From sequence record OR544955: a stretch of DNA of 64,000 bases, one strand, 5' to 3'. This document shows, one piece after another, positions 2,753 through 62,573 of this stretch. The notes under the pieces are model-generated. The model was not told the DNA's origin. It saw only the letters and a program-made list of their open reading frames with translations, and did no database searches. This DNA comes from Escherichia phage vB_EcoP_EP32B. The translations under genes and the position numbers were made by a program. Position 1 is the stretch's first letter, and every line of letters begins with the position of its first letter.

Positions 2753-3046
2753 CTATTTTATAAAGACTTTTGACGAGGCCTGAGAAACAGTATCCCCGCA
2801 TGAAATTGGGTCGGCCATTTGAACGGCCTTTTTACCGGTGACGTATACTTTAGATGTACGAGGTTCAGTAACACCTCCATGAGTCTCGTATGGTTTTTTA
2901 ATTTCTGTATGAGGTGTTATTTGGTCTCCTGCCACTAGAACAGGAATACCGCCTGTGAACACTTTAGATTGGGAAGCATTTATTACAGTAGGAGGCCATG
3001 CTTCATGACCTGCTGTAACGCACTTGTCGTAACTTAAGCCAGACAT
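2753..3046 (-). CDS. 5.4: PAAR-repeat baseplate spike tip protein gp5.4
   Basis: 97 aa from Met [21 protein letters not shown]; matches recalled T4 gp5.4 almost along its length; position between 5.1 and 6. Confidence 0.85.
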
Positions 3047-3048
3047 TT

Positions 3049-3564
3049 TCACGGCCTCACATAAACATAGTTTCGTAATTGATGAGCCCATTTGCTCCAA
3101 TTTCCTACTATAGTTTTTGTATAAACCTTAGTAAGAGTTTTTTGTACTGGAGCCGGTGGAGGTTCTGTACCAGAGTCACTTCTAGAACCGCCTGATGAAC
3201 TTTCTTCTTGGTAGTTATAAATCATTTCAACCGTATAACTAAACACTTTACGAAGATTCTGAGGAGCTCTCCACAAATATAACTGTGTGGACTCATCTTT
3301 TGGTAAATCATCCCATGAAGATGCGGTTTCAAAATCATCATTTAATCGATATTTCAATGCGTCCGAAGAAAAGCTAAACACACTTTCATATGTTCCATAT
3401 AAACGATTACCGTCTACCGTAATGCCTTGTGTCGGTTCATAATCTGTTATATTTATTGACACTAAAGTTTCGGTTGTTTCTAACTGTGGAGTAAAAAGGA
3501 CGTCAATAGACGCCCCTTCCATGTCTTCTCCTAAGTCGGTATTTAAAGGAAGTATTTGTGCCAT
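3049..3564 (-). CDS. 5.1: hypothetical protein at gp5.1 position
   Basis: 171 aa ORF immediately downstream of gp5 on minus strand; assigned by synteny only. Confidence 0.55.
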
Positions 3565-9301: not shown

Positions 9302-9360
9302 TTTCACAAAACAGTTTACATAAGGATGATGGTGTGATACTATCATCCTATCAAATAAAC
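9302..9360 (+). promoter_or_regulatory. early promoter in inverted repeat (PeSL-like)
   Basis: TTTTCACAAAACAGTTTAC upstream element and -35 GTTTAC at 9314-9319; inverted repeat GGATGATGG...CTATCATCC spanning a -10-like GATACT. Confidence 0.45.
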
Positions 9361-9440
9361 AACCTCAAGGAAATAAAATGAAAACATATCAAGAATTTAT
9401 ATATGTTATAGTAGTCCTATCAAAACAAGAGGATAATAAA

Positions 9441-9626
9441 ATGAAACGCGCTGAACTGATTCGTAATGTTGCTGTAGTAATTGCTTCAATGGCTTTTAGT
9501 TTTTCGATGTTTGTAGGATTCATTTGTGGACTACTGACAACAACTGAAAACTCTATCTCATTGGTAGTAGCATTTCTAATCGGCTTAATCGCTATCGTTA
9601 TGGATAAAATTGCAAAAGGTGAGTAA
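9441..9626 (+). CDS. small hydrophobic membrane protein (61 aa)
   Basis: track ORF 9378..9626 begins MKTYQEFI (internal-protein targeting-sequence-like) but a PeSL-like fragment lies inside; likely start MKRAELIR after GAGGA. Confidence 0.4.
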   Translation: MKRAELIRNVAVVIASMAFSFSMFVGFICGLLTTTENSISLVVAFLIGLIAIVMDKIAKGE

Positions 9627-11029: not shown

Positions 11030-11080
11030 TGCTAAAACAGTTTACAACAAGATAGGGCTATGTTATAGTAGTCCTATCAA
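11030..11080 (+). promoter_or_regulatory. early promoter in inverted repeat (PeSL-like)
   Basis: AAAACAGTTTAC -35, inverted repeat GATAGG...CCTATC around TGTTATAGT, then AAATGGAG Shine-Dalgarno. Confidence 0.45.
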
Positions 11081-11097
11081 AACAAATGGAGTCCACA

Positions 11098-11337
11098 ATG
11101 ATTTATTACGAAAGTATCGGAACCAAAGTGGTTGGTAAAACCATTACTCGTGAAAAGTTTGCAAAGATATTCGATATGCGTTATAAAAAATCTGAACACA
11201 AAGGCATCCGATTCGAAGATGCGCACTGTACAATTTGCCCTTATAATGAAGACATAAACGGTACAATCGTTCCATTGGTAGAGGCTTCACATGATGACCT
11301 CTGGGATGAATATAATATCGCATGTCGTGAAATTTAA
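11098..11337 (+). CDS. hypothetical protein (79 aa)
   Basis: ORF 11086..11337, start taken at MIYYES after GGAG. Confidence 0.5.
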   Translation: MIYYESIGTKVVGKTITREKFAKIFDMRYKKSEHKGIRFEDAHCTICPYNEDINGTIVPLVEASHDDLWDEYNIACREI

Positions 11338-12322: not shown

Positions 12323-12372
12323 TTTCACAAAACAGTTTACAAGGTCTGTAGTTGTTGATACTATAGACCTAT
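12323..12372 (+). promoter_or_regulatory. early promoter in inverted repeat (PeSL-like)
   Basis: TTTCACAAAACAGTTTAC, inverted repeat AGGTCTGTAG...CTATAGACCT spanning GATACTATAG. Confidence 0.45.
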
Positions 12373-12402
12373 CAAAACAAATGAGTGAATGGAGATATCA
12401 AA

Positions 12403-12603
12403 ATGACTACTTTGAATAAACGTTTCGGTAAAGCTAAACCTGGTTGTGCAGCAGAACGTCGTTATGTTTTCGCTCAGTTAGAAGATGTAGAGTATCAGAT
12501 TAATCAAGTTCACATTACTGGTATCGAGCCTATGTGTGGCCTTGAAGCTCTTCGTGAAGTTCGTGATGGGTATCGTCGTGACATCGAAGAAATGTCAAAA
12601 TAA
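12403..12603 (+). CDS. hypothetical protein (66 aa)
   Basis: ORF 12385..12603, start at MTTLNKRFG. Confidence 0.5.
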   Translation: MTTLNKRFGKAKPGCAAERRYVFAQLEDVEYQINQVHITGIEPMCGLEALREVRDGYRRDIEEMSK

Positions 12604-12650
12604 GTGTACAAACTGATAGGACTATGTTATAGTAGTAGTCCTATTAAAAC
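12604..12650 (+). promoter_or_regulatory. early promoter in inverted repeat (PeSL-like)
   Basis: GTGTAC -35 variant, inverted repeat ATAGGACTATGTTATAGTAGTAGTCCTAT, then GAGGAG. Confidence 0.4.
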
Positions 12651-12664
12651 ATGAGGAGAATATT

Positions 12665-12970
12665 ATGAAATTAACAGAAACCAATCGAATTGGTCTTTTA
12701 ACAATACTTGCATCACCTTTTTACGCAACTCTTTCTGTTGCAGTATTACAAAAGGCTTACGATATGGATGGTGTTCCTGGTTTTGTATTCTTATCGCCGT
12801 TTTTGCTATTCGTTGGAGCATTGTTATTATATGCCACGACTGGTTTCGACCATAATGTCTGGGTCAATTATAAACGTAAATTGTCCGAAGAAGAACACGC
12901 AGAAGCTCGTAAAAAAGCTATTGAATCTACCAATCTAGAAAATTTCATTAAAGAATGTCGAGGAAAATAA
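12665..12970 (+). CDS. membrane protein (101 aa, two hydrophobic segments)
   Basis: hydrophobic stretches ILASPFYATLSVAVL and FVFLSPFLLFVGALLLY. Confidence 0.6.
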   Translation: MKLTETNRIGLLTILASPFYATLSVAVLQKAYDMDGVPGFVFLSPFLLFVGALLLYATTGFDHNVWVNYKRKLSEEEHAEARKKAIESTNLENFIKECRGK

Positions 12971-17502: not shown

Positions 17503-17890
17503 AGACATCAAAGGCTATAAGCCGCATACCGACGATAAAATCGGTAAAGTGAACGCTATTAAAGATGCAGAAGTTCGAGGAAAAATACTAATGGCTCAAA
17601 TCCTATCAGGCTTTGGAACTCATTATGAAGCATCTAGACGCATAACTGAAAGCAATCCTTTTGGCCTTGTTCCGAAGCACAAGAAAATTCAAAGCCTTGA
17701 TGACTTTGAGAACCGCCTATGGGCCCTCTTTAATGAGTACAAGGCATATCTGAAAGAAGACGCTGACGATTGTCTTGAAGAAGATGAGATTGCGTATTAC
17801 GAACAACGCCTTGAACAGCTCAAGAACTTCCATCAGGTTCGTGACGAAGTATCTAAAGCAGTTAAAAAGTTAATTCCTTTCAAAGAGTAG
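17492..17890 (+). CDS. hypothetical protein (132 aa)
   Basis: start at [12 protein letters not shown] overlapping upstream stop (ATGTCGATTGA); frame of track ORF 17324..17890. Confidence 0.5.
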
Positions 17891-17939
17891 TTTACTTCTC
17901 CTCTAGTTGTGTTACTATAGACATGTCAACTAGAGGAGA
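17890..17939 (+). promoter_or_regulatory. early promoter in inverted repeat (PeSL-like) upstream of regB
   Basis: GTTTAC, arms TCTCCTCTAGTTG / CAACTAGAGGAGA flanking GTTACTATAG. Confidence 0.5.
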
Positions 17940-17946
17940 AATCAAA

Positions 17947-21085: not shown

Positions 21086-21096
21086 GGCATCTATCA

Positions 21097-21146
21097 GTTT
21101 ACTTCTCCTCAGGTTGTGTTATAGTAGACCTTACTTACTAGAGGAG
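21097..21146 (+). promoter_or_regulatory. early promoter in inverted repeat (PeSL-like)
   Basis: GTTTAC, arms CTCCTC / GAGGAG around GTTATAGTAG. Confidence 0.45.
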
Positions 21147-21152
21147 AACGTT

Positions 21153-21339: not shown

Positions 21340-21546
21340 ATGCTTTACGATTATACTGGAAAATCTGAAGACGGTGTACTTGAACTTTTACCTGAAAGCG
21401 CTGAAGACGATGATATGGTGGTGATGTTTTGTAAAAATGGCCCTGGGGATAAGGGATGGATTTATCTTCGCCAAGAAAATGACTTAATTGTTTTGGACCC
21501 TAAACAAGTTGAAGAACTTTATCAACATTTAAAACACAATCGGTAG
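21340..21546 (+). CDS. hypothetical acidic protein (68 aa)
   Basis: ATG preceded by GAGGAC. Confidence 0.5.
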   Translation: MLYDYTGKSEDGVLELLPESAEDDDMVVMFCKNGPGDKGWIYLRQENDLIVLDPKQVEELYQHLKHNR

Positions 21547-21590
21547 TTTACGTCTTGGTAGGACTATGATATAGTAATCCTACCAAAACA
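21546..21590 (+). promoter_or_regulatory. early promoter in inverted repeat (PeSL-like)
   Basis: GTTTAC, inverted repeat TTGGTAGGA...TCCTACCAA around TGATATAGT, then AAATGGAG. Confidence 0.45.
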
Positions 21591-21603
21591 AATGGAGAAC
21601 AAA

Positions 21604-21714
21604 ATGAAACTTTTGCTTATCGCTTATGTTGTAGTACAATACAATTATCCGATGTTTACTTATAACATGGTAAACGGCATAGTGAATCTTATTGAAACGA
21701 GTATGGTAAAATGA
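21604..21714 (+). CDS. small hydrophobic peptide (36 aa)
   Basis: ATG right after the PeSL with GGAGA Shine-Dalgarno; below track length cutoff. Confidence 0.35.
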   Translation: MKLLLIAYVVVQYNYPMFTYNMVNGIVNLIETSMVK

Positions 21715-24232: not shown

Positions 24233-24256
24233 GGTCAAAATATTTTTAAAAAGTAG

Positions 24257-24296
24257 TGTACATGCTTTTAGGATATGTTATTATAGACCTATCGAA
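24257..24296 (+). promoter_or_regulatory. early promoter (PeSL-like)
   Basis: GTGTAC -35 variant, -10-like TTATTATAGACCTATC. Confidence 0.4.
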
Positions 24297-25441: not shown

Positions 25442-25729
25442 ATGGATTTTATGCAAAAAATTAAAGCCGCAGTCGAACTGTATGCTCATCGTATGGTTAG
25501 TTCTACAATGCAATATAGCGAGGAGGTTCGCCAGGACTCTTCCTTGAAAGGAAAAACTAAAGCCTTAATTACCTTAGACCGTTTGCAAAAGAATGTCATA
25601 GAGATGCTCCAGTACGACAAGGGTGTATATAAGAAAGAACAGGAAGAGAAACTTAAATCTGAAAAATTACAAAAAATCCCGAAGTCGGTTTGGTTCAGTG
25701 GAAAAAATACCGAAAAAAGTTTCTTTTAG
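25442..25729 (+). CDS. hypothetical protein (95 aa)
   Basis: ATG preceded by AAAGAGG; overlapping ORF 25341..25547 judged less likely. Confidence 0.45.
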   Translation: MDFMQKIKAAVELYAHRMVSSTMQYSEEVRQDSSLKGKTKALITLDRLQKNVIEMLQYDKGVYKKEQEEKLKSEKLQKIPKSVWFSGKNTEKSFF

Positions 25730-25731
25730 TT

Positions 25732-25780
25732 GTTTACAAGGTCTATGTTTATGTTATTATAGACCTATCAACTACTGGAG
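25732..25780 (+). promoter_or_regulatory. early promoter in inverted repeat (PeSL-like)
   Basis: GTTTAC, inverted repeat AGGTCTAT...ATAGACCT around GTTATTATAG, then ACTGGAGG. Confidence 0.45.
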
Positions 25781-25787
25781 GTAAAAC

Positions 25788-26377: not shown

Positions 26378-27373
26378 ATGAGCATTACATCTGATGCTGT
26401 AAAACATGAAATTAACGGTTTATGTGCTTCACAGATTAAAGTGTGGTTTAAAGACCATAACGATCGCAGAGCACTTAATTATGAGCAAATTGCTATCCAA
26501 GTTCATCAATTACTGACTAGTAAATTTGATTTTCATATGCCGTCTGAAATCTATACTAATCTACCGCGAGCGCTTATTAAAGCGTGTAAAGGTTACGGAA
26601 AATCAATGGCTGATGGAATCTTCAGCGCGCTGAATAAACTTAACGTTCTGTCGATGATTAACTCTAACAACATCCTGCGTAATCTAGGACGTACTGATTT
26701 GTTCGGTCGTGAACAGTGTAAAATGCCTTTGAAATGGATTGTTGCTCATCTTAACGAGAACCAAACACGTTTTATGGCCGTATCAGCACGCTTACAAATG
26801 GGCCTAGATCGTCAGATGAACTTTAAAACTCATCCACGTTATTCAGGTTCAACAGACTTTTATAAATGTGAGCTTCAAAAGGTCGGTGGCAAAACCGTCT
26901 TAGTAGTTCGTGTAACGTTTGAAGGACGACGTCAAGGATATTTTGACCTAATCGGCTCTGGTCTTAAACATTGTGGATTTATTGACGAAGTTGATATCAA
27001 GCGAGACGGCATTGGATACCGTATTGGATATGTTTGTACTCTTAAAGAAGAGATTTCAGGACCAGCACCAGGACTAAAAGACGTTAGATATAAAGACGAG
27101 CTCATTGAAGAAATAAAAGAAGTTGAATATGATATCAACCAAGAAGATGCTCTTAAAGACCTTATTGATGAACTAAACCAAGACGTTATTCCGGTTCAGA
27201 AATTTGAATCAAAACACGCTGAGCAAATCAAATACTTTGAAGCTTTGATTAACGAACTTAATGTAACTATTCAACAAACTGATGATGAAATCTCACGATT
27301 AGCAGGCTTAAACGGTAAAAATAAAACAGAACGAGCTAATCTTATTCAGGTAGTAAAACTTCTTAAGGAATGA
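26378..27373 (+). CDS. hypothetical protein with C-terminal coiled coil (331 aa)
   Basis: preceded by GCTTTAC / GTTATAATG promoter-like pair and GAGG. Confidence 0.6.
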   Translation: MSITSDAVKHEINGLCASQIKVWFKDHNDRRALNYEQIAIQVHQLLTSKFDFHMPSEIYTNLPRALIKACKGYGKSMADGIFSALNKLNVLSMINSNNILRNLGRTDLFGREQCKMPLKWIVAHLNENQTRFMAVSARLQMGLDRQMNFKTHPRYSGSTDFYKCELQKVGGKTVLVVRVTFEGRRQGYFDLIGSGLKHCGFIDEVDIKRDGIGYRIGYVCTLKEEISGPAPGLKDVRYKDELIEEIKEVEYDINQEDALKDLIDELNQDVIPVQKFESKHAEQIKYFEALINELNVTIQQTDDEISRLAGLNGKNKTERANLIQVVKLLKE

Positions 27374-27402
27374 TGTACAACCAAGGATGGTTGGAGTATA
27401 AT
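27371..27402 (+). promoter_or_regulatory. early promoter; first copy of a 27-bp direct repeat
   Basis: TACAACCAAGGATGGTTGGAGTATAAT at 27376-27402, -10 TATAAT. Confidence 0.45.
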
Positions 27403-27428
27403 AAATTTTTCAACATGAGGAATATAAA

Positions 27429-28250
27429 ATGGCTTTTATTACACGTAGAGAACTTATCAAAGAATTTACCTCGAACGCATATACTCCAGGACCTAATCCT
27501 ATCCGTATGCCTGTAAAGACTCCTGAAGAGATTGAGGAAATCTGTTCATATTATGGGATTACTTCTCGTAAGTTTACTCAATTTGAATGCGTTACTAACA
27601 CACCCGTTAAAGAGTTCATTAAAAATGGTGAGTTCAGCCGTTTATTAGCCAAACAGAAACTTCGTAATTTTTGTATTGGCGGTGAAGGACAATATTTCGC
27701 TAAGCAGTTTCGGAATAACCTTAACAATCTGATGGCCATTGCTTCTCGTATTCGTCCTCAAGCAATTAATATGAAACATTTGAAATATACTTACGATAAG
27801 TTGGAAATCATGGTTATCAGTGAGAATGAGTTCACTCTCACGTATAAACCTAAGAATGATAACGTTGCTCGTGTATTCCACCAAGCGTTGGAAGTGTTAG
27901 GTGATAATATTCACCAGATTAAAGCAATTTATTCTCGTGAGCTTAATATTATCAACCCTATCAAGAATAAGGGCCATATCGCTATCCAGGCTCGTGTATC
28001 TATTGGTAAAAAGGTTCCTGCGCCATGGTGGCACAAAGACTCCGAATATTATCAAAATCTTAAAAAGGAAAATGCACTAATGACCTTCTTCCGGCCGAAG
28101 ATTACCATTACAATCAAATCAAGGCCACTATGGACCAACTGTCTGTTGAACTTGACAAAGCACAAGCTAAGCTTCGTGATGCTCAAAGTGTTGTAACGAA
28201 TCTCCAGTTGCAGTACTCTAAACTTTTTAACGCAATGAATGCATTAAAAT
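27429..28250 (+). CDS. hypothetical protein, apparently frameshifted near its 3-prime end
   Basis: 255-codon ORF 27429..28196 ends in an implausible hydrophobic tail while the +2 frame encodes a coiled-coil C-terminus MDQLSVELDKAQAKLRDAQSVV...NALKS ending about 28250. Confidence 0.5.
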
Positions 28251-28257
28251 CATAAAT

Positions 28258-28289
28258 CAGTTTACAACCAAGGATGGTTGGAGTATAAT
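28258..28289 (+). promoter_or_regulatory. early promoter; second copy of the 27-bp direct repeat
   Basis: GTTTAC plus identical TACAACCAAGGATGGTTGGAGTATAAT at 28263-28289. Confidence 0.45.
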
Positions 28290-28318
28290 GAAATCTATCT
28301 TAACGAGAGGAAAATATT

Positions 28319-29263
28319 ATGACACGTTCACATTACGTTGATTATTTTGCAGGTCTTATCGCTAACGTTCATGCCCAACGTGCTTCTGGTGCACTAGGAT
28401 TTGATGTTCCACACCGAGATGTAGTAAGTGGCATTCTTCGAGATTTTGGTACATACACAGGTCAAGAAAATCATATCTGTAAAGATACTCAGAATGCGTA
28501 TTCTCATTCATTAGGGACGCTGCTTCAATGGTTTAAACGTTCTCGTTTATTATCTTCTACTGTGGCTCGTGATAACATTAAAAACTTTATGAAGCCGAGC
28601 TTTATTAAATCTGTGACATCTAAAACCGATTTGGTTGAATTCACTATTGTTAATGATGTTAAAAAGGCTCATTTGGCTGATTGGTTCTCTACCATTCCTG
28701 AAACTAAATTTGCTGATAAATTTGCTTGTGAATTCAATAACCAAGTGAATATGCTTTTTAAACATTCACGTAAATTATTCACTGGCGGCGATGGCCGTAC
28801 AAATAAAGTTCATGTTAAAGATTGGGTTACTGCAGTATTCAAACCAACTGGTAATGGTAACGCATCGTTATCAATTGATATCCAGGTTCCTTATTATTAC
28901 TCACGTAATCTCGGTACCATGAAAGCCGAAGAAATTAATAAGCGCAACAAAACCATTCGTTCTCTGTCTTATAAACTTCGCATGATGTTACAGACTATGG
29001 ATGTTGTTGAAATGTTCGACGAAACCGAAGATAACGGTTCAATGTTATTCAGTTCTCGAATTAAAATTAAACTGAAGAACCCTAATGTGTTTAAGCCTAT
29101 TAAAGAACCTAAAGCAGAAAAGGTCGATATCATGGCCGAAGAACGCGAATATCTCAAATCTCGTCTGAAAGAAGTCGAAGCCCAGATTGCAGAACAAACT
29201 AAATCGTTAAAAGCTCTGAATGCGAAAGCGGACGGTTTACGAAATGCCATTGAGGTGTTATAA
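28319..29263 (+). CDS. hypothetical protein with C-terminal coiled coil (314 aa)
   Basis: ORF with GAGAGG Shine-Dalgarno. Confidence 0.6.
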   Translation: MTRSHYVDYFAGLIANVHAQRASGALGFDVPHRDVVSGILRDFGTYTGQENHICKDTQNAYSHSLGTLLQWFKRSRLLSSTVARDNIKNFMKPSFIKSVTSKTDLVEFTIVNDVKKAHLADWFSTIPETKFADKFACEFNNQVNMLFKHSRKLFTGGDGRTNKVHVKDWVTAVFKPTGNGNASLSIDIQVPYYYSRNLGTMKAEEINKRNKTIRSLSYKLRMMLQTMDVVEMFDETEDNGSMLFSSRIKIKLKNPNVFKPIKEPKAEKVDIMAEEREYLKSRLKEVEAQIAEQTKSLKALNAKADGLRNAIEVL

Positions 29264-31127: not shown

Positions 31128-31601
31128 ATGTTATTATCAGGCGCAAAATATAAAGAAGAAAAACAAAAATTTTATGATGCACAGAATGGTAAGTGTCCTA
31201 TTTGCCACCGTGAATTAGACCCTGATGTTCAAGGTAACCATCTTGACCACGACCATGAATTAAACGGGCCAAAAGCCGGTAGAGTTCGTGGGTTACTATG
31301 TAACCTGTGCAATGCAGCAGAAGGTCAAATGAAGCATAAGTTCAACCGTTCTGGTCTTAAAGGTCAAAACGTTGACTACCTCGAATGGCTTGAAGCTCTT
31401 CTTGCTTATTTGAAACAAGATTATTCTGATAATAATATCCATCCTAATTTTGTTCCAGACAAAACTAAAGAGTTCTCAAGACTAGGTAAAGAGGAAATGA
31501 TGGCCGAGATGCTTCAAAGAGGATTTGAATATAATGAATCTGATACTAAAACACAATTAATAGCTTCATTCAAAAAGCAGCTTAGAAAGAGTTTAAAATG
31601 A
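31128..31601 (+). CDS. 49: endonuclease VII (Holliday junction resolvase) gp49
   Basis: MLLSGAKYKEEKQKFYDAQNGKCPICHRELDPDVQGNHLDHDHELNGP..., matches recalled T4 endo VII. Confidence 0.95.
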   Translation: MLLSGAKYKEEKQKFYDAQNGKCPICHRELDPDVQGNHLDHDHELNGPKAGRVRGLLCNLCNAAEGQMKHKFNRSGLKGQNVDYLEWLEALLAYLKQDYSDNNIHPNFVPDKTKEFSRLGKEEMMAEMLQRGFEYNESDTKTQLIASFKKQLRKSLK

Positions 31602-33415
31602 AAATTGAAAAAGAAATTGAAGGATTAATTCGTAAAACTAATAAAGATCTTTTAAACGAGAATGCTAATAAAGATTCTCGTGTTTTTCCAACTCAACGGG
31701 ACCTTATGGCTGGTATTGTGTCTAAGCACATTGCCAAAAATATGGTCCCGTCTTTTATTATGAAAGCGCATGAAAGTGGAATTATCCACATGCATGATAT
31801 TGATTATTCTCCTGCTCTTCCGTTTACTAATTGTTGTTTAGTCGATTTAAAGGGGATGCTTGAGAACGGATTTAAATTAGGCAATGCTCAAATTGAAACG
31901 CCTAAATCGATTGGTGTTGCTACTGCAATTATGGCACAAATTACTGCACAAGTTGCTTCACATCAGTATGGCGGAACTACATTTGCAAATGTCGATAAAG
32001 TTCTTTCTCCTTATGTTAAACGCACATACGCTAAACATGTTGAAGATGCGGAAAAATGGCAAATCGCTGATGCGTTGAATTATGCTCAATCCAAAACAGA
32101 AAAAGATGTCTATGACGCGTTCCAAGCTTATGAATATGAAGTAAATACTCTCTTTAGTTCAAATGGGCAAACGCCTTTTGTAACAATTACATTTGGTACG
32201 GGAACCGACTGGACTGAACGAATGATTCAGAAGGCAATTCTTAAAAACCGCATTAAAGGTCTTGGTCGTGATGGAATAACTCCTATTTTCCCTAAGCTTG
32301 TTATGTTTGTTGAAGAAGGTGTTAATCTTTATAAAGATGATCCGAACTATGATATTAAGCAGCTTGCTCTAGAGTGTGCAAGTAAAAGGATGTATCCTGA
32401 CATTATTTCGGTTAAGAATAATAAAGCTATTACCGGTTCTTCAATTCCAGTTTCTCCAATGGGTTGCCGTAGTTTCTTGGGCGTATGGAAAGATTCGACT
32501 GGTAATGAAATTCTTGATGGACGTAATAATCTCGGTGTTGTAACGCTGAATCTTCCTCGAATTGCGTTAGATTCTTATATTGGAACACAATTTAACGAAC
32601 AGAAATTTGTTGAATTATTCAATGAACGAATGGATTTGTGTTTTGAAGCATTGATGTGTAGAATTAGTTCCTTAAAAGGAGTTAAAGCGACTGTTGCTCC
32701 TATTCTTTACCAAGAAGGTGCATTCGGGGTTCGTCTTAAACCCGATGACGATATAATTGAGTTATTTAAAAACGGTAGAAGTTCAGTGTCCTTAGGATAC
32801 ATTGGTATTCACGAATTGAATATTCTTGTTGGTCGTGATATTGGACAAGAAATTTTAACTAAAATGAATGCTCTTCTTAAACAATGGACTGAAAGAACTG
32901 GGTTTGCTTTTAGCTTGTATTCTACACCTGCTGAAAACCTTTGTTATCGTTTCTGTAAACTAGACACAGAAAAATATGGAAGTGTAAAGGATGTTACTGA
33001 TAAAGGATGGTATACTAACAGTTTCCACGTTTCAGTAGAAGAAAATATTACTCCGTTTGAAAAGATTTCTCGTGAAGCACCATATCATTTCATTGCGACA
33101 GGTGGTCACATTTCTTATGTTGAACTTCCTGATATGAAAAACAACCTAAAAGGACTTGAGGCTGTATGGGATTATGCTGCACAGCATTTAGATTATTTTG
33201 GTGTTAATATGCCAGTAGATAAATGTTTTACATGTGGAAGTACCCATGAAATGACTCCGACTGAAAATGGATTTGTTTGTTCTATTTGTGGAGAAACTGA
33301 TCCTAAAAAGATGAACACAATAAGAAGAACATGCGGCTATTTGGGGAATCCGAACGAACGAGGATTTAATCTCGGCAAAAATAAAGAAATCATGCATAGG
33401 GTTAAACACCAATGA
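31598..33415 (+). CDS. nrdD: anaerobic ribonucleoside-triphosphate reductase NrdD
   Basis: 605 aa contiguous ORF; C-terminal Cys cluster CFTCGSTHE...CSICG and glycine-radical region. Confidence 0.95.
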   Translation: MKIEKEIEGLIRKTNKDLLNENANKDSRVFPTQRDLMAGIVSKHIAKNMVPSFIMKAHESGIIHMHDIDYSPALPFTNCCLVDLKGMLENGFKLGNAQIETPKSIGVATAIMAQITAQVASHQYGGTTFANVDKVLSPYVKRTYAKHVEDAEKWQIADALNYAQSKTEKDVYDAFQAYEYEVNTLFSSNGQTPFVTITFGTGTDWTERMIQKAILKNRIKGLGRDGITPIFPKLVMFVEEGVNLYKDDPNYDIKQLALECASKRMYPDIISVKNNKAITGSSIPVSPMGCRSFLGVWKDSTGNEILDGRNNLGVVTLNLPRIALDSYIGTQFNEQKFVELFNERMDLCFEALMCRISSLKGVKATVAPILYQEGAFGVRLKPDDDIIELFKNGRSSVSLGYIGIHELNILVGRDIGQEILTKMNALLKQWTERTGFAFSLYSTPAENLCYRFCKLDTEKYGSVKDVTDKGWYTNSFHVSVEENITPFEKISREAPYHFIATGGHISYVELPDMKNNLKGLEAVWDYAAQHLDYFGVNMPVDKCFTCGSTHEMTPTENGFVCSICGETDPKKMNTIRRTCGYLGNPNERGFNLGKNKEIMHRVKHQ

Positions 33416-38289: not shown

Positions 38290-38463
38290 ATGACGAACAT
38301 CCCGACTTCTGAAAATTTCGATAAAATCCGTAAAGGCAAAGCAGAAAGAATGAGACGTTTTAAAGAGTCTTATGATAAAGCTAAAGCCGAAGGAACTATT
38401 ACATACAAGCCCATTCGATTTAAAAGTTCAAATGAGCCTCTGTACGGCGTACTATGTGGATAG
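38290..38463 (+). CDS. small basic protein (57 aa)
   Basis: MTNIPTSENFDKIRKGKAE...; GAGGTG upstream; ends at terminator. Confidence 0.35.
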   Translation: MTNIPTSENFDKIRKGKAERMRRFKESYDKAKAEGTITYKPIRFKSSNEPLYGVLCG

Positions 38464-38487
38464 GAACTCTTCGGAGTTCCTTTTTTT
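38463..38487 (+). terminator. UUCG-tetraloop hairpin terminator
   Basis: GGAACTC-TTCG-GAGTTCC followed by TTTTTTT. Confidence 0.6.
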
Positions 38488-38533
38488 GCTTTATAAACGG
38501 ATGATAGAATGAATTAATTAATGAGGAAATAAT

Positions 38534-57332: not shown

Positions 57333-57707
57333 ATGAATATGTCTCAAGCAATTTTTACTGCAATCACCGAAAACACAACTGTTGAAGTAGTTTCTCCGCT
57401 GGCAACCTACGTTATTCTTGCTCCTAAAACTATTGTATCTCGTATGGAAAACATGGGCAAACGTATCGTACAAATAGTTGGAGCTGGAAATCAAAAACTT
57501 GATTATCTACGAACCATCAAAGCTTATGAACATTTCCAACTCGAAAAAGGTTCTCCTATCCAGGTAGAACTCGTAAATGGTGATATCGTTCGAGCAATGT
57601 TCCATCATTTCTATGCATTGAATGACCCATCTAAAGCGGTTCGTTTAATTGCATACGACGCAAACCAAAACGAAATCAACGCAGACATATCTAAATTACG
57701 TTTTTAA
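57333..57707 (+). CDS. hypothetical protein (124 aa)
   Basis: ORF with GAGGAAAAC Shine-Dalgarno. Confidence 0.6.
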   Translation: MNMSQAIFTAITENTTVEVVSPLATYVILAPKTIVSRMENMGKRIVQIVGAGNQKLDYLRTIKAYEHFQLEKGSPIQVELVNGDIVRAMFHHFYALNDPSKAVRLIAYDANQNEINADISKLRF

Positions 57708-57756
57708 GTTTACTTCTCCAGTAGTTGTGTTATTATAGACCTATCAACTACTGGAG
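57708..57756 (+). promoter_or_regulatory. early promoter in inverted repeat (PeSL-like)
   Basis: GTTTAC, arms CTCCAGTAGTTG / CAACTACTGGAG around GTTATTATAGACC. Confidence 0.5.
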
Positions 57757-57762
57757 AACAAA

Positions 57763-58080: not shown

Positions 58081-58331
58081 GCAAATTAACTAAGGTTACT
58101 TTTATCGGTTGGTTTAAAAGCGGTGAGATGTTCACTAAAGATATCATGTTATCAGGTGATCGCGAAGAAATCGAGTGGGTTACGGTACAACTTGCTGAAG
58201 TGAACAAAGCATTAGTTAAAGCGTTTGTTAATGACGAGAAAGTTTTTGAAGCTGATTTCAAGTTTAAAATAGCTGTTTACAAGCCCCACATATTGTGTTA
58301 CTATCTTTCTATCAACTACAGAGGAAATTGA
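58077..58331 (+). CDS. hypothetical protein (84 aa)
   Basis: start MSKLTKVTFIGW after GAGGAAAT; ATGA overlap. Confidence 0.45.
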   Translation: MSKLTKVTFIGWFKSGEMFTKDIMLSGDREEIEWVTVQLAEVNKALVKAFVNDEKVFEADFKFKIAVYKPHILCYYLSINYRGN

Positions 58332-59011: not shown

Positions 59012-59015
59012 ACTT

Positions 59016-59055
59016 GTTTACATTATAGATGGACTATAGTATAGTAGTCCTATCA
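59016..59055 (+). promoter_or_regulatory. early promoter in inverted repeat (PeSL-like)
   Basis: GTTTAC, inverted repeat GGACTATAGTATAGTAGTCC, then AAGGAG. Confidence 0.45.
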
Positions 59056-59074
59056 AATCAACTAAGGAGTTAAA

Positions 59075-59368
59075 ATGAAAAAGTTATCATTGGCAGCAAT
59101 CTTACTTGCAGTATCATGTGCACCGGCTCCAGTTACGGCAGGTTATGATAAAGACCTCTGTGAGTGGTCAATGACTGCAAATCAAGAAGATGTTGAACAA
59201 CAAATCTTCTCTGATATCATGAACATCACTAAACGAGACCGTCCTAATATGGTTAATAAAGTTGTTGAACAACTTAAGTCTGGCGGTATCATGCAGTACA
59301 ACTATGTTTTGTATTGTGACCCTAATTTCGATAACAAAGATATCGTAACCGAAATCACAGGTGAATAA
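59075..59368 (+). CDS. sp: Spackle (sp) periplasmic protein
   Basis: signal peptide then AGYDKDLCEWSMTANQ...LKSGGIMQYNYVLYCDPNF, matches recalled T4 Sp. Confidence 0.8.
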   Translation: MKKLSLAAILLAVSCAPAPVTAGYDKDLCEWSMTANQEDVEQQIFSDIMNITKRDRPNMVNKVVEQLKSGGIMQYNYVLYCDPNFDNKDIVTEITGE

Positions 59369-62472: not shown

Positions 62473-62481
62473 ATAATTTAA

Positions 62482-62506
62482 GGAATCCTTCGGGATTCCT
62501 TTTTTT
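62482..62506 (+). terminator. UUCG-tetraloop hairpin terminator after soc
   Basis: GGAATCC-TTCG-GGATTCC followed by TTTTTTT. Confidence 0.65.
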
Positions 62507-62573
62507 GTTTCTACAGTTTACAACCACTAAAAACTGTGTTAAGATATTTTTACTTACTCAAGAGGAGAACAAT

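Follow-up and report, generated by a model that had tools for sequence, protein, structure and literature searches.

Promoter-early stem-loops (PeSLs), defined by Arbiol et al. 2010 (PMC2839356) and Comeau et al. 2014 (PMC4122927), are located between the stop codon of one gene and the Shine-Dalgarno sequence and ATG of the next, and they are concentrated in hyperplastic regions of T4-type phage genomes (PMC2839356, PMC4122927). Five subclasses of their stem-loops were distinguished, a position in the spacer that separates the -35 box from the -10 box being among the commonest, and open reading frames (ORFs) of one phage with a PeSL on either side were found to be replaced, in its sister phage, by one chimeric PeSL (PMC2839356, PMC4122927). 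Excised mini-circles of PeSL cassettes were detected by inverse polymerase chain reaction in RB49 and phi1, where the crossover points were scattered over the PeSL (PMC2839356) and one mini-circle was put at an estimated 1e-5 or so per virion; mini-circle integration is part of the published model, and its authors left site-specific recombination open (PMC4122927, PMC2839356). Here, we analysed a 64,000-nucleotide stretch of Escherichia phage vB_EcoP_EP32B (OR544955; hereafter the window), in which an earlier note had picked out a 27-bp direct repeat (TACAACCAAGGATGGTTGGAGTATAAT) on both sides of one gene, here identified as nrdC.5. It is very probable that the two copies are PeSL-type promoter repeats at which the nrdC.5 cassette is lost or gained, while we are much less sure of the enzymatic route and of the direction of any given event.

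Two other described systems are close to this one. In cells with the sirtuin defence gene dsr1, T4 nrdC.5 restores infection (Srikant, Guegler & Laub, eLife 2022, PMC9391042), and laboratory-evolved T4 lost nrdC.5 by deletion (PMC9391042). These deletions resemble the present case in that non-essential genes including nrdC.5 were lost through recombination at short homologies, one copy of the homology was left behind and a host-range trade-off (here a presumed one) was involved. However, they used unique microhomologies of 2-10 bp and were laboratory events in which genome size was under selection (PMC9391042), whereas here a 27-bp promoter repeat bounds a recurrent, clean single-gene module in natural isolates. 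With integron cassettes (attC x attI) the likeness is a functional analogy only: a single promoter-proximal ORF leaves as a circle and is put back at a short structured site. The site here is a promoter and not an attC, and the repeat brings a promoter of its own, whereas integron cassettes usually have none. The exchange here is most simply homology-driven; no integrase was seen, though none was searched for.

The 27-mer occurs at exactly two sites in the window, both on the plus strand (27376-27402 and 28263-28289), and no further copy was found in the window when up to three mismatches were allowed. The chance expectation from 100 dinucleotide-preserving shuffles was 0.00 matches. The identity reported by the earlier note was exact on recount, rather than off by 1-2 bp, and with one mismatch the match of the repeat finder (family D15) reached 30 nt. 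Similarity continues downstream, as the leaders from the repeat to the ATG are 69% identical between the copies (above 500 of 500 shuffles), so that the homologous unit measures about 57-60 nt, with the -35 box at one end, the start codon at the other and the identical 27-nt core inside. Pairs of other early promoters in the window reach only 60-87% identity, and the 27-bp identity thus goes beyond a shared promoter consensus. The copies are in direct orientation and 887 bp apart, which becomes about 1,020 bp where relatives have the gene intact. Conservation of both copies was seen in RB69, O157tp3, moskry, AV111, PhAPEC2, S143_2 and others, and across genomes the 27-mer is nearly invariant and the bases just outside it are polymorphic.

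Each copy lies within a predicted early promoter, which agrees with the proposal of the earlier note that each repeat is the promoter of the next gene. The predicted nrdC.5 promoter (27374-27402) consists of a -35 box TGTACA (27374-27379), a 17-bp spacer and a -10 box TATAAT (27397-27402), and that of nrdC.3 (28261-28289) of TTTACA (28261-28266), likewise a 17-bp spacer, and TATAAT (28284-28289). With sigma70 scores of 10/12 and 11/12, respectively, they belong to the best matches of the surrounding 8 kb. Copy 2 (TTTACA-17-TATAAT) fits the published T4/PST early-promoter consensus TTTACW-N17-TAYWAT (PMC4122927), whereas copy 1 has TGTACA at -35. The setting of both is intergenic: only 2 nt separate the TGA stop codon of nrdC.6 (27371-27373) from copy 1, which is followed by the nrdC.5 leader (27403-27428) with the Shine-Dalgarno sequence GAGGAA (27417-27422) and an ATG at 27429, and copy 2 lies between a TAA (28253-28255) and the nrdC.3 leader (28290-28318) with AGAGGAA (28306-28312) and an ATG at 28319. 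Upstream of the -35 box, copy 2 is preceded by AT-rich sequence (TTAAAATCATAAATCAG) and copy 1 adjoins coding sequence (AAGGAATGATG). The depositors of phage NBG1 annotated copy 2 as "promoter"; both copies are presumably active promoters. All promoters, leaders, hairpins and genes of this locus lie on the plus strand.

Within the spacer, a hairpin was predicted by folding. In copy 1 (27378-27393) the stem halves CAACCA (27378-27383) and TGGTTG (27388-27393) enclose an AGGA loop (27384-27387), and the same sequence is present in copy 2 (28265-28280). The fold has -6.9 kcal/mol, and only 1 of 200 shuffles of the 27-mer folded as well. A GGAG, the cleavage motif of the T4 RegB endoribonuclease, stands directly 3' of the hairpin in both copies (27393-27396 and 28280-28283) and likewise upstream of nrdC.3 in T4 and RB14; it is speculative, but read-through transcripts might be processed there by RegB.

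The loss or gain of the cassette was examined in relatives. The predicted deletion product, consisting of the upstream flank, one repeat and the downstream flank (...CTTAAGGAATGATG-TACAACCAAGGATGGTTGGAGTATAAT-GAATCTATCTTAAC...), was searched against 50,697 phage records. A 168-nt junction query matched 153 records, 21 of which (about 1 in 7) aligned end to end; these 21 include two GenBank/RefSeq duplicate pairs and correspond to 19 distinct genomes. The nrdC.5 interior was found in 132 records, once in each, and since 132 and 21 add up to 153, the junction-type genomes are entirely without nrdC.5. With a 2-kb junction query, most Mosigvirus genomes matched in two pieces split by the cassette and FL18 and AV114 in one, and at this place the sequences of these two phages show exactly the nrdC.6 stop codon, one 27-mer and the nrdC.3 leader. 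Twelve junction-type and nine gene-bearing loci were inspected at base level together with the window. The junction fell exactly within the repeat in all twelve gene-less loci (12/12), joining the upstream flank of copy 1 to a copy-2-type downstream flank, and in the deletion-type relatives nrdC.3 stands directly behind the single remaining repeat. The precise deletion between the repeats that the earlier note had proposed, and the gene-less relatives that it had suggested for comparison, were thus both found, with one repeat left in these genomes and the gene present in the other 132.

The junctions carry several flank haplotypes (GAATCT, CTTTCT, GAACCT, GAATTT and CATTCT), and the deletion-type genomes, which originate from Denmark, Germany, China and France, differ in their flanks (TATAATGAATCT, TATAATCTTTCT and others). 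An assembly artefact behind the gene-less records is unlikely, because assembly k-mers are usually longer than the 27-bp repeat and many laboratories contributed these records, with differing haplotypes. The comparison rests on GenBank phages, as IMG/VR held the 27-mer in 4 stretches only and relatives of NrdC.3 at 4 loci only. In neighbour-joining trees of nrdC.6 and nrdC.3, gene-present and gene-absent states were interspersed. Fitch parsimony gave 9 changes on the nrdC.6 tree, 6 on the nrdC.3 tree and 7 on the concatenated tree, compared to about 7.5 for random labels, in a tree sample that was deliberately enriched for junction-type genomes. As parsimony thus equalled random labelling, the nrdC.5 module appears to segregate freely, by recurrent events or by recombination of the flanks, two causes that parsimony on flanking-gene trees cannot separate. 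Moskry, which carries the gene, and AV110, which does not, differ at 14 positions in about 1.9 kb of flanking genes.

Compared to the described PeSLs, the locus shows the same sigma70-like early promoter with a spacer stem-loop, a stop codon before it and a Shine-Dalgarno sequence and ATG after it, the same placement in a hyperplastic, non-essential early region with single-copy indel junctions, and two direct copies around one ORF that is missing from sister phages with a single copy. Judged by such sequence-level criteria, the repeat pair is a clear new example of a known mechanism, extended to the RB69-like genus. It differs in that the original PeSLs were those of RB49/phi1, T4/PST and KVP40/nt-1, neither paper mentioning RB69-like phages or nrdC genes, in that the core here is perfectly identical over 27 bp, and in that the stem is short and A/T-rich instead of a G-run/C-run, with nothing to suggest termination. 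The evidence differs as well, being population-wide here (153 genomes) compared to one phage pair there, for which mini-circles were seen.

We propose that one PeSL-type regulatory cassette is present in two copies, each with a repeat as its core, one of which would drive nrdC.5 and the other nrdC.3, and that exchange between these identical direct copies would remove nrdC.5 cleanly. What would be left after excision is the nrdC.6 stop codon, one unchanged promoter and an intact nrdC.3, so that the deletion would come without regulatory cost, the surviving hybrid promoter keeping nrdC.3 expressed. The reverse reaction may re-add nrdC.5 if the resident single copy recombines with a donor genome or with the circle left over from an excision, and nrdC.5 would thereby be a present/absent module in the Mosigvirus population. 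As the event may be reversible, some of the gene-less cases may be gains and not losses. We infer homologous recombination as the enzymatic route, but slippage or annealing would leave the same junction.

The hairpin belongs to a wider family. A stem-AGGA-stem is also present, in RB14 and T4, in the promoter spacers upstream of nrdC.4 (TTTACTTT(A/G)CCACAAGGATGTGGTATAAT) and of nrdC.3 (TTTAAAGCCAAGGATGGCTCGGAG(C/T)ATAAA), and the stems of these two promoters are different yet self-complementary. The two promoters (RB14, L005 3763-3800 and 4829-4860; T4, L029 2480-2520 and 3540-3580) flank nrdC.4 in T4-type phages, and Mosigvirus is without nrdC.4. A motif scan further identified a stem-AGGA-stem upstream of nrdC.7 in T4 and RB14, and a CATCCA/TGGATG stem in a second promoter, in the dexA/motB region of Mosigvirus. 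That region has, in some Mosigvirus contigs, one more exact copy of the 27-mer (the third), which is flanked by copy-2-type sequence and stands between two ORFs (L010 601-627, minus strand; L009 1326-1352, plus strand). The upstream ORF encodes a 3'-5' exonuclease-domain protein, probably DexA, and the downstream one is motB-like; the next promoter downstream, some 560 bp away from the third copy, is the one with the CATCCA/TGGATG hairpin (stem from 1885 of L009 and from 2237 of the reverse-complemented L010). This dexA/motB locus is not in the window, and the occurrence of a third copy elsewhere in Mosigvirus contigs makes the element a dispersed promoter cassette.

Over nine distinct variants of the stem, 81% of the cells pair compared to 57% in shuffles, and 4 of 7 pairs are altered on both sides, a count that is partly circular, as the set was in part collected by scanning for hairpins; the set is also small. 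Three natural variants (ESCO47, IMGVR_UViG_3300030021 copy 1 and L027) break the stem without compensation. Overall, this is moderate evidence that the stem-loop is selected. A known structured RNA was rejected, as searching the whole window with the Rfam covariance models at the gathering threshold returned 0 matches.

Several observations weigh against PeSL-type promoter repeats as sites of loss or gain, one of which is the missing reciprocal product. The earlier note had envisaged deletion or duplication between the repeats, and only the deletion (21/153) was found. A tandem-duplication or circle junction was searched with a query made of the nrdC.5 3' end, the repeat and the nrdC.5 leader (...GCATTAAAATCATAAA(N)CAGTT-27-mer-AAATTTTTCAACATGAGG...), and none of the 147 matching records covered at least 80% of it; tandem duplication of the cassette in relatives was therefore rejected, with only a 29-nt relic in phage moha. 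Moha (L006, MN850590) covers 76% of the query. At 2781-3056, between a divergent nrdC.6 and copy 1, it carries the relic and an extra 66-aa hydrophobic ORF (phrog_7899), the relic being 29 nt of the nrdC.5 3' end (AATGAATGCATTAAAATCATAAAACAGTT) directly adjoining copy 1 on its upstream side. No other phage of the collection shows this arrangement, and the insertion is unique at the DNA level. The relic itself speaks for the explanation, being the junction expected from unequal exchange, a tandem duplication or a circular cassette, but as a single relic it proves nothing alone.

The hairpin and the cargo raise further points of this kind. The hairpin is weak: within 61 nt of context the fold was not significant, and the stem has 6 bp with 3 G-C pairs and is followed by GAGTATAAT without a U-tract. 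A terminator scan of the region did not list the repeat hairpin among its terminator-like sites; given this and the missing T-run, an intrinsic (Rho-independent) terminator is not supported, and the "terminator" half of the PeSL concept appears unsupported for this hairpin. An anti-Dsr1 function of Mosigvirus NrdC.5 is uncertain, as it would have to be transferred at 24% identity.

The direction of change is also in question. ESCO47, the most divergent lineage sampled, shows the single-copy state with a variant core, and the 8 nt that separate nrdC.6 from nrdC.5 in T4-type phages contain no promoter, so that some of the "deletions" may be the ancestral state. The missing phylogenetic signal, in turn, can stem from recombination of flanking alleles instead of many independent events. 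An alternative explanation is that nrdC.5 was gained and not lost, nrdC.6-promoter-nrdC.3 being ancestral in Mosigvirus and the promoter with nrdC.5 having been inserted via a circle or a donor, which would have created the direct repeat. The single copy of ESCO47 fits this explanation, and copy 1 would then be a Mosigvirus-specific acquisition, as T4-type phages have no promoter at this place. Moreover, copy 1 starts 2 nt past the nrdC.6 stop codon, at exactly the point where homology ends, a circular cassette would carry the very junction of the moha relic, and mini-circle integration is already contained in the PeSL model (PMC4122927, PMC2839356). However, nrdC.5 follows nrdC.6 in both Tequatrovirus and Mosigvirus, a position that looks old, 132 of the 153 records carry it, and its decay in the window points to loss, while the near-identical flanks of moskry and AV110 fit a recent loss as well as a recent gain. 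We regard a gain as rather unlikely. Likewise, the enzymatic route could be another one, because 27 bp is short for efficient homologous recombination in T4, which reportedly drops sharply below about 50 bp (Singer et al. 1982). Replication slippage (copy-choice) or single-strand annealing between the repeats, with no UvsX-type recombination and no circles, could be the real route; the junction would be identical, no duplication product was seen, and T4 is known to delete and amplify between microhomologies of 2-10 bp (PMC9391042). In contrast, circular PeSL-PeSL products were shown in RB49 and phi1 (PMC2839356), and the moha relic suggests a former reciprocal or duplication-type product. The sequence data cannot discriminate between the two routes, and our preference against slippage or annealing, which we consider rather unlikely, is a tentative one.

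If the AGGA-loop hairpin were a specific site of protein recognition or cleavage, the exchange would be site-specific in the manner of integron attC. The same hairpin in the nrdC.3, nrdC.4 and nrdC.7 spacers of T4/RB14 and in the Mosigvirus dexA/motB promoter is consistent with this, as are the paired stem changes (81% compared to 57% in shuffles, 4/7 pairs both-sided), and the PeSL authors had left the option open (PMC2839356, PMC4122927). On the other hand, no recombinase is implicated, the covariation count is partly circular with three natural variants breaking the stem uncompensated, and the scattered crossovers of RB49/phi1 are typical of homology-driven exchange. A site-specific route thus appears improbable, and it is equally improbable that the hairpin is a dedicated, protein-recognised exchange site by which early promoters serve as attC-like docking places and anti-defence cassettes such as nrdC.5 are swapped site-specifically between co-infecting T4-type phages. 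Finally, the identity of the two sites could be a by-product of selection for one optimal promoter, unrelated to gene loss, since each copy matches a promoter well and different genomes share the core. This can hardly be the case, as the sigma70 spacer is normally unconstrained, the other early promoters of the window are only 60-87% identical, the junctions of the inspected gene-less loci (12/12) lie within the repeat and the synthetic junction is matched over its full length by all 21 gene-less records (21/21). The explanation that we favour is that of PeSL-type promoter repeats.

In the window itself, nrdC.5 (DUF7235) is a pseudogene, which was delimited from the ORF list and by alignment (27429..28255). 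Alignment with two relatives revealed a 133-bp deletion between 28076 and 28077, which shifts the frame, so that the ORF from the ATG at 27429 runs out of frame to 28196 (255 aa); the ancestral C-terminal frame persists as a 41-codon ORF with its TAA at 28253-28255. The cassette ORF of 27429..28250 given in the earlier note was not borne out, the ORF ending at 28196 and the ancestral stop codon lying at 28253-28255. Intact nrdC.5 has 960 bp (319 aa) in relatives, and when the gene interior served as the query, each of the twelve best records aligned in two pieces that together span 133 bp more than the query; none of the records among the matches listed shared the deletion. Inspection of the alignment showed no microhomology beyond about 1 nt at the ends of the deletion, and the event is therefore illegitimate and unrelated to the repeat. 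The window phage would thus be losing nrdC.5 by a second, independent route, unless the 133-bp gap is a sequencing or assembly error.

The protein of an intact orthologue matched Pfam DUF7235 over profile positions 1-307 (E = 7e-124, 413.7 bits compared to a cut-off of 30) and phrog_2351, of unknown function, whereas the shortened product of the window reached 279.6 bits and only positions 1-209 of 307. NrdC.5 of the T4-type phage RB14 is a full-length member of DUF7235 too, and Mosigvirus NrdC.5 shares 24% identity with it (E = 6e-9); NrdC.4 and Mosigvirus NrdC.5 gave no alignment. The intact cassette protein thus resembles T4 NrdC.5 in its full-length membership of the family and as the product of an early gene at the same place after nrdC.6. 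It differs in its 24% identity to the T4-type protein, anti-Dsr1 activity has been shown for T4 NrdC.5 only, and the window copy is frameshifted. As NrdC.5 is without similarity to NrdC.6 or NrdC.3, the repeat was rejected as a remnant of a tandem gene duplication.

The region is the early, non-essential nrdC.x part of a Mosigvirus, and many genomes of this genus (RB69-like; Straboviridae, Tevenvirinae; T4-type) match it at 96-98% identity. The annotation of RB69 gives the order nrdC.6, nrdC.5 (the cassette), nrdC.3, nrdC.2, nrdC.7 and nrdC; in Mosigvirus nrdC.7 lies between nrdC.2 and nrdC, and in T4-type phages it is located upstream of nrdC.6. In the window, the ORF list places the nrdC.6 homologue (331 aa; the RB69 orthologue is annotated nrdC.6; phrog_2257, unknown function) at 26378..27373 and, with the annotation of relatives, the nrdC.3 homologue (314 aa) at 28319..29263; no homologues of NrdC.3 were found outside Tequatrovirus and Mosigvirus. 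Further downstream, FL18 (L003 6954-7997) and AV114 (L004 7121-7942) carry homing-endonuclease genes between the gene for endonuclease VII (gene 49) and nrdD. The window differs from both, as its gene 49 (31128-31601) overlaps nrdD (31598-33415) with nothing between them.

Many further early-promoter cassettes of the form GTTTAC...TATAGT/TATTAT, in repeat families that are 60-87% alike, are present in the window (9308-9444, 11034-11101, 12329-12376, 12603-12667, 17871-17940, 21096-21147, 21545-21607, 24237-24293, 25713-25782, 57707-57758, 58269-58316 and 59015-59077). Their stem-loops overlap the -10 box (e.g. GATAGGGCTA...TAGTCCTATC) or pair with the leader, and these cassettes, which resemble classic PeSLs, are places where other modules might be exchanged. 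Two similar G+C-rich hairpins at 38462-38491 and 62481-62510, each followed by a T-run (AGGAACTCTTCGGAGTTCCTTTTTTTG / AGGAATCCTTCGGGATTCCTTTTTTTG; repeat family D19), look like ordinary intrinsic terminators.

The locus reveals no new kind of mechanism, as the route of gene shuffling has already been described in T4-type phages. Rather, it offers a clean, population-scale case of T4-type phages gaining and losing single accessory genes while their neighbours remain undisturbed. As the boundary of the module is the promoter itself, the excision product would retain a working (predicted) promoter for the next gene. The defined junction sequences also provide a simple test system for the rate and the genetics of promoter-mediated cassette exchange. 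NrdC.5 is polymorphic in three forms, i.e. present, cleanly absent and, in the window, frameshifted, and since the cargo belongs to the family of T4 nrdC.5, which acts in counter-defence against Dsr1, this is likely a host-range polymorphism, which would take effect via Dsr1-like defences.

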